Shown here one piece after another: positions 7,748 to 9,481 of a stretch of DNA of 10,787 nucleotides. Location: the NCBI RefSeq assembly GCF_003334815.1, contig NZ_QOWO01000060.1; one strand, 5' to 3'. The notes under the pieces are model-generated. The model worked only from the letters and a program-made list of their open reading frames with translations, ran no database searches and had not been told where the DNA came from. Position numbers and translations under genes: made by a program. The DNA comes from Escherichia coli (GTDB taxonomy: Bacteria > Pseudomonadota > Gammaproteobacteria > Enterobacterales > Enterobacteriaceae). Numbering within the stretch: the stretch's first letter is position 1; each line of letters starts with the position of its first letter.

Positions 7748-7788
7748 AAAAGTGGTTCTTCCGCAACCTGGGTGGAAGAAAATGGATG
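7748..7788. repeat. ISL3 left terminal inverted repeat
   Basis: See the element entry; sequence read directly. Confidence 0.75.
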
Positions 7789-7827
7789 AAACTTTCTGGC
7801 GAACAAGGATCTAAGCTGTTTTAAGTT

Positions 7828-9447
7828 ATGGGCAACCCAATGCACTCTCTTAAGACACTTCTACAGTTACCTTGAGGATGGCGATGCAGTCGACAAATTA
7901 TTAGCTCTGACGGTATAACCCTCCATCTCCACGGAAAACGCAAAACAGCACAATGTCCTGAATGCTTTAAGCGTAGCGACTCTGTTCATAGTTGTTGTCG
8001 GCGCCGGATACAGCATCTACCCTGATCAGGACAGACGCTATGGCTTGTATTTTCCGTCCGCCACTGGTACTGCCGTAACCCAGCTTGTTCACGTAAAATT
8101 TTTGCCGAGTCGCTTGCTCCCTTCGCCGGTTCACACCAACAGTCTTCACAGGCGTTACAAAATTTACAACGTCAACTGGGATTAATAGCTGGAGGTGAGG
8201 CTGGAAAACGGGCTGCAACGGCAGCGGGTCTCCGTTGCAGTGCTGATACTCTTCTTCGCAGGGTTATCAATACCCCGGAGACGAAACAGTCAGGCGCGCC
8301 TCATGTCGGTATTGATGAGTGGGCGTGGCATCGGGGCCACTGCTGCGGTATGTTAATAGTCAATCTTGATACTCACCGTCCCCTCGTCCTGCTTCCCGGC
8401 CGTGATCAGCGTACGCTGGCGACCTGGTTCAGAAAATATCCGGAAATACAGGTTGTCTCGCGTGATCGCAGTGGAGTCTATGCGACAGCAGCACGTGAAG
8501 GTGCACCTCAGGCCAGACAGGTGGCCGATCGATGGCACCTGCTAAAAAATATTGGTGATGAGCCTGAACGAATGATGTACAGACATATGCCTCTGATACG
8601 TCTTGTTGTCAGAGAGTTATCACTGAAGAAATCACCTGAGCCAGAAATATCTGTGCCTGTAGCATCGCTCCGTCGTCCGGAACGCCTTAAACAGCAAACC
8701 CGCAAAAAACGGCATCAGCATTGGACAGAGGTTATGGCCCTGCATAACAAGGGATGTAGTTTCAGGGAAATATCCCGTATTACAGGCCTGTCGCGAGTGA
8801 CAGTCAGTCGCTGGGTGCGTTCAGGAACATTCCCTGAAATGTCAACCCGGCCTCCAAAGCGAGGGCTTCTGGACCCATGGAGGGAGTGGTTAAAAGAGCA
8901 ACGAGAAAGTGGTAATTATAATGCCAGCCGGATATGGCGGGAAATGGTGGCCCAGGGGGGGACAGGCAGTGAAACCATCGTCAGGGATACTGTTGCCAAA
9001 TGGCGTAAAGGCTGGAACCCACCGGTTACTACTGCCGCAAGACTTCCTTCAGTGTCCCGGGTAAGCCGCTGGTTGATGCCCTGGAGAATAATCAGGGGCG
9101 AAGAAAATTATGCATCCCGATTTATTAGTCTGATGTGTGAAAAAGAACCGGAGTTGAAAATAGCACAGCAACTGGTACTCGAGTTCTACCGTATTCTGAA
9201 AACCTAAAATAAATCACAGCTAAGCAGCTGGTTCACTCGAGTCCACGAAAGCGGCTCAGCAGAACTTCGGTGCGTAGCTGCGGGGATGGAAGCTGATGCT
9301 GCGGCTATATGTGAGGCAATCAGCAGTCGCTGGAGTAATGGTGTTGTCGAAGGTCATGTAAATCGCCTGAAGGTGCTGATACGCCAGATGTATGGTCGAG
9401 CCGGATTTGAACTACTTAGGCGGAGGGTAATGAGTCCACTGGCATGA
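7828..9447 (+). pseudogene. ISL3-family transposase, one continuous frame broken by three in-frame stops (TGA 7873, TGA 8023, TAA 9205)
   Basis: A single frame from ATG 7828 reads MGNPMHSLKTLLQLP*GWRCSRQIISSDGITLHLHGKRKTAQCPECFKRSDSVHSCCRRRIQHLP*SGQTLWLVFSVRHWYCRNPACSRKIFAE...GIDEWAWHRGH...IQVVSRDRSGVYATAAREGAPQARQVADRWHLLKN...FYRILKT*NKSQ...WSNGVVEGHVNRLKVLIRQMYGRAGFELLRRRVMSPLA. The CPxC...HS...LP...C.N..C...F.E N-terminus, GIDE/VVSRD DDE core and SNGxVEG C-terminus are the ISL3 hallmarks as I recall them. The ORF track's ATG 8350 is internal. Confidence 0.8.
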
Positions 9448-9481
9448 AAATCTTCACCTAGGTTGCGGAAGAGCCACTTTT
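9443..9481. repeat. ISL3 right terminal inverted repeat (overlaps the transposase 3' end)
   Basis: Reverse complement matches the left repeat; see the element entry. Confidence 0.75.

Follow-up and report, generated by a model that had tools for sequence, protein, structure and literature searches.

The decayed ISEc38 copy and its composite ends

The 10,787-nt stretch analyzed here (the window, to which all coordinates refer unless a comparison locus, L plus number, is named) is part of an Escherichia coli genomic island of the CP4-44/Ag43 type. It carries an ISL3-family insertion sequence (IS) whose homologues are labelled ISEc38 by RefSeq (intact ones as 'ISL3-like element ISEc38 family transposase'). 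In the RefSeq annotation, the part of interest consists of an ISL3 family transposase pseudogene, a gamma-glutamyltransferase (ggt) pseudogene and a phosphotriesterase-related gene. The object singled out in a preliminary description of this DNA is thus an ordinary one, i.e., a known, catalogued, decayed IS and a ggt pseudogene, both present in RefSeq, at an ancient island junction. Positions 7733-9496 represent a dead copy of ISEc38, in which a 1,722-bp ISL3-type core is enclosed by the 21-nt ends of an IS100-type element. The element has the following parts.

7733-7753, plus strand: IS100-type terminal 21 nt of the right-end (IRR) type, TGTCAACGACGGATGAAAAGT; 21 of 21 positions agree with the right terminus of IS100 from plasmid p1658/97; the same tip adjoins the core in about 20 unrelated contexts
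7754-9475, plus strand: ISEc38 core, ISL3 family, 1,722 bp, GGTTCTTCC...GGAAGAGCC; colinear with active plasmid copies
7754-7777 and 9452-9475: ISL3-type inverted repeats of about 24 nt, within the ISEc38 core
7828-9447, plus strand: pseudogene of the transposase (539 codons), interrupted by stop codons in frame at 7873, 8023 and 9205
8728-8985, plus strand: IstA-like tandem helix-turn-helix (HTH) insert in the ISL3 DDE domain, codons 301-386; matches positions 2-104 of the NCBIfam IS21 transposase profile (E 6e-16)
9476-9496, minus strand: IS100-type terminal 21 nt, a variant of the left-end (IRL) type, reverse complement TGTCACGAACAGTGCAAAAGT; 19 of 21 positions agree with the left terminus of IS100

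A repeat search of the window revealed an inverted repeat of 43 nt (7732-7774 and 9455-9497). The clear terminal repeats ascribed to the ISL3 element in the preliminary description do exist, but they extend past the limits proposed there (7748-9481), which coincide neither with the core nor with the complete unit. The limits of the unit were set by comparison with copies in unrelated contexts, namely the O145 chromosome, several plasmids and 74 metagenome loci. In all these copies similarity runs from TGTCA to TGACA, so that the shared unit comprises 1,764 bp (7733-9496).

The 43-nt repeat is composite and consists of an inner ISL3-type end and an outer 21-nt IS100 terminus. The inner ends of the core read GG(T/C)TCTTCCGCAAC... 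and have the start GG(C/T)TCTT of ISL3 inverted repeats (GGTTCTTCCGCAAC... from 7754 and ...GTTGCGGAAGAGCC up to 9475). The outer 21 nt are terminal repeats of the IS100 form 5'-TGTCA.../...TGACA-3'. Our reference, the 1,954-bp IS100 copy of p1658/97, starts with TGTCACGAACGGTGCAATAGT followed by GATCC, finishes with GATC followed by ACTTTTCATCCGTCGTTGACA, and is flanked by the 5-bp duplication TTACG. The left tip in the window matches the right end of IS100 and the right tip its left end; the variant of the right tip found here is also present in the plasmid copies L088-L090. The hexamers AAAAGT and ACTTTT, which had been regarded as part of the ISL3 repeat, correspond to nt 16-21 of the IS100-type tips; they do lie in the repeat, but in that part of it which is IS100-derived and not ISL3's own. 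Between the tips only the ISL3 transposase pseudogene is found, and neither istA nor istB.

Two other explanations of the ends were dropped once the outer 21 nt had been recognized as the left and right termini of IS100. These were a long inverted repeat of ISEc38 itself, with two variants of its outer 16 nt, and a recombination within the repeats that would have inverted the core, proposed for the swapped variants. The tip variants appear swapped because the core is not always in the same orientation with respect to its host IS. Indeed, tip-core-tip is the form ISEc38 almost always takes: about 23 of the 25 or so distinct left contexts among the 74 metagenome loci carry a tip, with the left-end and right-end types being about equally frequent.

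The window copy has no intact transposase frame, as it is interrupted by three nonsense codons. It differs from an active plasmid unit at 76 of 1,764 nt (4.3%), without a single indel. At the same junction, strain Z1322HEC0010 (L004) harbours an intact ISEc38 (L004 3133-4898), whose transposase (L004:3229-4848) matches NCBIfam transpos_ISL3 (E 8e-112) and possesses the Pfam domains Zn_ribbon_ISL3 (PF14690) and a split DDE_Tnp_ISL3 (PF01610). This copy is 99.3% identical to the plasmid copies (the window copy, 95.3%), while its right flank (corresponding to 9498-10712) is ~98.5% identical to that of the window. The old copy in Z1322HEC0010 has therefore probably been overwritten by recombination with an active one, judging from these identities.

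Target duplications and nesting in IS21-family ends

No target duplication of either kind flanks the element in the window. An 8-bp direct repeat is absent from the ends of the ISL3 core (TGAAAAGT vs ACTTTTGC), as the preliminary description had correctly pointed out, and a search for 8-bp duplications with shifted ends did not reveal any either. Outside the tips, a 5-bp duplication is missing as well (ACATC vs GTATG). However, the expectation of 8 bp does not apply to the tip-flanked form, since sister copies carry 5-bp repeats outside their tips. Two plasmid units of 1,764 bp are flanked by AGTAC (L091) and CAAAC (L094), and for both of them a related plasmid has the exact empty site, in which the 5-mer occurs only once (L170 and L169, respectively). 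Three further relatives (L178, L172, L181) show GTTTC, GTTGA and ACCAG in the same position.

The core is nevertheless capable of ISL3-style insertion on its own. In one metagenomic context (L147, L142, L136), the 1,722-bp core alone has been inserted into the left terminal repeat of IS100, with the 8-bp duplication GCAATAGT, which is identical to nt 14-21 of IS100. The core-only insertion with 8 bp and the 5-bp repeats outside the tips imply that the core acts as an ISL3 element, whereas the 5-bp repeats belong to its IS21-type shell. For annotation this means that the 8-bp rule of ISL3 elements is unfit for ISEc38 copies, which normally reside in IS100 termini with a 5-bp duplication.

IS100 and ISEc38 are also found inserted the other way round. 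In strain L16-131 (L182 6302-8260), an IS100 copy directly abuts the left tip of the ISEc38 unit and is accompanied by the 5-bp duplication ACAGC, and in strain MS 85-1 (L183 6638-8591) IS100 has been inserted inside the ISEc38 core. Because of these two insertions, the two elements can be said to hit each other in both directions.

The transposase of ISEc38 is remarkable for the insert at codons 301-386. In the intact protein, the match to Pfam DDE_Tnp_ISL3 is split into residues 160-294 and 413-534 by an insert of about 118 residues, which is 33% identical to residues 9-98 of IS100 IstA (E 3e-10). In IstA, the corresponding region is the tandem HTH-1/HTH-2 module, by which a single terminal repeat is read. 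Transposases of the ISEc38 type comprise 2,219 clusters (50% identity) below E 1e-30; among the best 150 cluster representatives, nearly all have 520-590 residues and most align in one stretch. An IS21-type match at the same place was detected in all eight relatives sampled (31-41% identity), and by this comparison the IstA-like insert is old and widespread.

In enterobacteria, three lineages of cores are located next to IS21-type tips: ISEc38 itself, L178 (82% DNA identity) and the group L172/L177/L180/L181 (79%). The core length of 1,722 bp is conserved in all three within 1 bp (1,721 bp in L178). The cores of L172, L177, L180 and L181 are 98.5-99% identical to each other, but their tips vary in sequence as well as length (21 or 55 nt). 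As near-identical cores carry different tips, the tips are not inherited together with the core, which has entered IS21-family ends repeatedly. The core junction is always just before GATCCAC of terminal repeat 1 or terminal repeat 2. In a marine relative (41% identity), one side bears a 21-nt TGTCAGCACCGATGCAAAAAT tip; in several other distant relatives the contigs end at or near the core ends, so that their flanks are uninformative. The same fixed core position recurs in various IS21-family repeats (L147/L142/L136, L172, L177, L178, L180, L181 and L184).

This pattern suggests targeted nesting of the core in IS21-family ends, followed by the loss of the host interior. More tentatively, ISEc38 and its relatives may be 'IS hunters', a large ISL3 subfamily in which the IstA-type insert would steer the ISL3 core to a fixed site in the terminal repeats of IS21-family elements, whose interior is then lost; we regard this as a serious possibility, though a somewhat doubtful one. 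An ISL3 subfamily that may target IS21-family ends by means of a borrowed IstA-type DNA-binding module is the lead of wider interest provided by this locus. Nothing relevant to ISL3/IS21 nesting was found in the accessible literature, and the literature on ISEc38 consisted of resistance-genomics lists without structural description. No match to the IS end of the ISEc38 unit was obtained among viral contigs.

The ggt remnant and the origin of the junction

The flanks of the element comprise the following features.

7545-7732, no strand: left flank, non-coding island backbone with ACATC as its last 5 nt, downstream of a zinc-ribbon gene (7134-7544); colinear with the island variants L004 and L005
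9497-9505, no strand: spacer; its first 5 nt, GTATG, are not a repeat of the left flank, and ggt homology at the DNA level begins only at 9521
9506-9819, plus strand: ggt remnant, residues ~477-580 of 580, 92.5% identical to K-12 ggt; gamma-glutamyltransferase pseudogene in RefSeq
9859-10710, minus strand: php-like (phosphotriesterase-related) gene, the first gene of a cargo module, with its 5' end cut off; intact with 344 amino acids in L004 and L006
10711-10787, plus strand: left end of an IS3 element, which cuts the php-like gene short at its 5' end; beyond 10710 the window is no longer homologous to L004/L006, and RefSeq annotates an IS3 family transposase there in strain S30

The ggt-like sequence to the right of the element, noticed already in the preliminary description, was confirmed. 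The GGT protein matches the window at 9506-9816 only (residues 477-580). At the DNA level, homology to K-12 ggt extends from 9521 to the stop codon TAA (9817-9819) with 92.5% identity, and none is found beyond the stop. The remnant has a 12-nt deletion, a TGA codon at 9533 and a 1-nt deletion at 9653. The distance from the end of the ISL3 core to recognizable ggt is 30-45 nt, and the IS100 tip lies in between. The 5' part of ggt is present neither upstream, as had been stated before, nor in any other part of the window; on the left lies unrelated sequence without similarity to ggt loci, and the two flanks of the element are unrelated to each other.

The identity of the ggt piece becomes apparent from the comparison of ggt loci. 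Among the 5,426 complete E. coli genomes searched for ggt matches, for the window junctions and for its empty site, 5,424 have a ggt match, and an intact core ggt is located elsewhere in essentially every genome; in those lacking the island module, the sole match is the core ggt, with 90-93% identity and ending at the stop codon. In K-12 (L086), the gene order is ugpQ-yhhA-ggt-yrhB-yrhD-IS1-yrhA-hcp-yhhY. In Citrobacter and Salmonella enterica subsp. diarizonae (L007-L010), it is ugpQ-yhhA-ggt-[php-like, DMT transporter, glutamine amidotransferase (GATase), rikA]-yhhY-yhhX, with the php-like gene convergent with ggt. The complete island module is present in strain AVS0967. Neither the synteny of the resident locus (ugpQ-yhhA-ggt-yrhB...yhhY) nor near-identity to it was found in the window, where the neighbours are the php-like gene and IS3. 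By gene order and identity, the ggt piece is the edge of an island cargo module ggt'-php-DMT-GATase-rikA and not part of the resident ggt locus. It is therefore the margin of an imported ggt-locus fragment, whose source is more closely related to E. coli than Citrobacter is.

The interval between ggt and yhhY is occupied in the K-12 core genome by yrhB-yrhD-IS1-yrhA-hcp, and about half of the complete E. coli genomes keep php-DMT-GATase-rikA on the island only. In evolutionary terms, about half of the complete genomes thus hold, on an island, a piece of the ggt-php-DMT-GATase-rikA region that their core genome lacks.

The junction seen in the window is present in 2,762 of the 5,426 genomes, and the event behind it must therefore be old and its outcome fixed. 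Not a single genome has the empty site, reconstructed by joining 7433-7732 to 9497-9796, and a chimeric query for the reciprocal junction between the 5' part of ggt and the left end of the IS was likewise without any match. A search for an uncolonized precursor, i.e., the left flank joined to IS100, returned two matches (L182 and L183); both are secondary IS100 insertions, and this candidate was dropped. As the duplication, the empty site and the reciprocal junction are all missing, the junction looks like the scar of a rearrangement or deletion rather than like a simple insertion. Of the deletion or inversion proposed in the preliminary description, the former is consistent with these results, whereas an inversion would have left a joint between the 5' part of ggt and the IS, which none of the 5,426 genomes has.

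ISEc38 copies often have one flank in common but not the other. For instance, L088-L090, L114 and L093/L123/L130 have the same left flank and different right tips and right flanks. These flanks show recombination between ISEc38 copies to be common. A hybrid IS without target duplication is the classic product of recombination between two copies of one IS. We therefore consider it probable that the junction is a deletion or recombination scar and that the window copy is a hybrid between two colonized IS100 copies or two ISEc38 units. The two tips would then originate from two different colonized IS100 copies, or from two ISEc38 units. These would have undergone homologous recombination with each other, or a comparable deletion associated with the IS, in which the DNA separating them was lost, the 5' part of the imported ggt among it, and a hybrid element without duplication was left. 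This would have been a single event, long ago, in the ancestor of the cobU-adjacent island of the CP4-44 type, with the copy decaying afterwards and the resident ggt locus never being involved.

Several observations weigh against such an origin. The precursor was not found (no genome has an uncolonized IS100 at the junction), no island variant was found that keeps the DNA between the two tips, and no donor of the ggt' module was identified. Furthermore, the right tip is separated from recognizable ggt by 9-24 nt of unexplained sequence, so that ggt may have been truncated before the IS event and independently of it. Finally, if IstAB moves tip-core-tip units as a whole, the missing duplication could be due to a later one-sided deletion. 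According to one alternative, a unit with a normal duplication would have been inserted at one of the present flanks, and a deletion starting from one tip (an IS-mediated adjacent deletion or an unrelated illegitimate event) would have replaced the other flank without participation of a second IS copy. In L121, L122 and L096 the tip is missing or cut on one side; these one-sided losses are in line with this scenario, and the short non-ggt spacer at 9497-9505 fits an untidy joint. Both 21-nt tips, however, are complete, which would require a deletion that ended precisely at the border of a tip, as is expected of events mediated by a transposase or by IS homology but not of random deletions. We regard this scenario as unlikely, though it is the one among the alternatives that deserves most attention.

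Still less probable is that ggt' had been truncated and joined to the backbone beforehand and that the 1,764-bp unit simply transposed into this junction in the manner of IS100, its 5-bp duplication being erased later by point mutations. The copy is old (4.3% diverged, three nonsense codons), and sister units do possess 5-bp duplications; yet ACATC and GTATG differ at three of five positions, while the surrounding flanks are 98-100% conserved between genomes, and the empty site is missing from all 5,426 of them. The preliminary description had implied that the ISL3 element was inserted into the resident ggt and that an adjacent deletion or inversion removed the 5' part of this gene and fused the island to the ggt locus. 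The absence of an 8-bp duplication and the presence of ggt-like sequence on the right side only, with unrelated sequence on the left, would fit that proposal. However, the remnant is only 92.5% identical to the core ggt and shows no homology to it past the stop codon, 5,424 of the 5,426 genomes have an intact core ggt elsewhere, the neighbours are php, IS3 and then cobU instead of yrhB and yhhY, no reciprocal junction exists in the genomes searched, and the end of the ISL3 core is separated from recognizable ggt by 30-45 nt including an IS100 tip. A fusion of the island with the resident ggt locus is thus very improbable. Recombination between two colonized IS100 copies or two ISEc38 units, with the loss of the DNA between them, remains the explanation that we favour.

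Island surroundings and comparison with known systems

The whole window was matched over at least 80% of its length in 274 complete genomes. In strains S30 and L16-131, IS3, an IS4 fragment and cobU-cobS come next after the stretch corresponding to the window; the genomes that match best thus have the region next to cobU. An IS110-family transposase pseudogene (5959-7123) is located between two zinc-ribbon paralogues upstream of the left flank and is absent from the island variants L004 and L005. Two segments present in strain S30 (~2.1 kb and ~4.5 kb) are missing from the window, at 1684-1686 and 3236-3238; therefore, the Ag43 open reading frame (1644-3287, minus strand) is an internal fragment, and the gene for a yeeP-like GTPase is gone.

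The unit in the window shares with IS100 (IS21 family, istA-istB) the outermost 21 nt at each end of the core, and its sister units have IS100-like 5-bp duplications. In contrast to IS100, it has no istA and istB, its interior being replaced by an ISL3 element, and it keeps one terminal repeat per end, whereas two terminal repeats per end were needed by IstA in vitro (PMC10122671). The window copy is colinear with intact RefSeq-labelled ISEc38 copies and 95.3-95.7% identical to them, and shares their GG(T/C)TCTTCC inverted repeats and their frame of 539 transposase codons; it differs from them by its three in-frame stops and by the lack of both kinds of target duplication.

The ggt-yhhY region of Citrobacter and S. 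diarizonae resembles the island module in order and orientation (3' end of ggt, convergent php-like gene, DMT transporter, GATase and rikA) and is colinear with it over 4.3 kb. The identity, however, is only 75-77% (82% for the ggt part), and the module in the window lies in an island, lacks the 5' part of ggt and is cut by IS3. Like the products of classic IS-mediated deletions, the window copy has complete ends, no duplication and unrelated flanks, and other ISEc38 copies have only one flank in common; unlike in the classic cases, the partner copy and the deleted segment have not been recovered for the event in the window.

A parallel to the nesting of ISEc38 is provided by IS4321/IS5075, which home into the terminal repeats of Tn21-family elements. 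These have an IS110-type transposase, whereas that of ISEc38 is a DDE enzyme of the ISL3 family; the element hosting ISEc38 is usually hollowed out, and the targeting by ISEc38 is putative. What they have in common is the fixed site that the inserted element, in our case cores of the ISEc38 type, occupies within terminal repeats belonging to another element.

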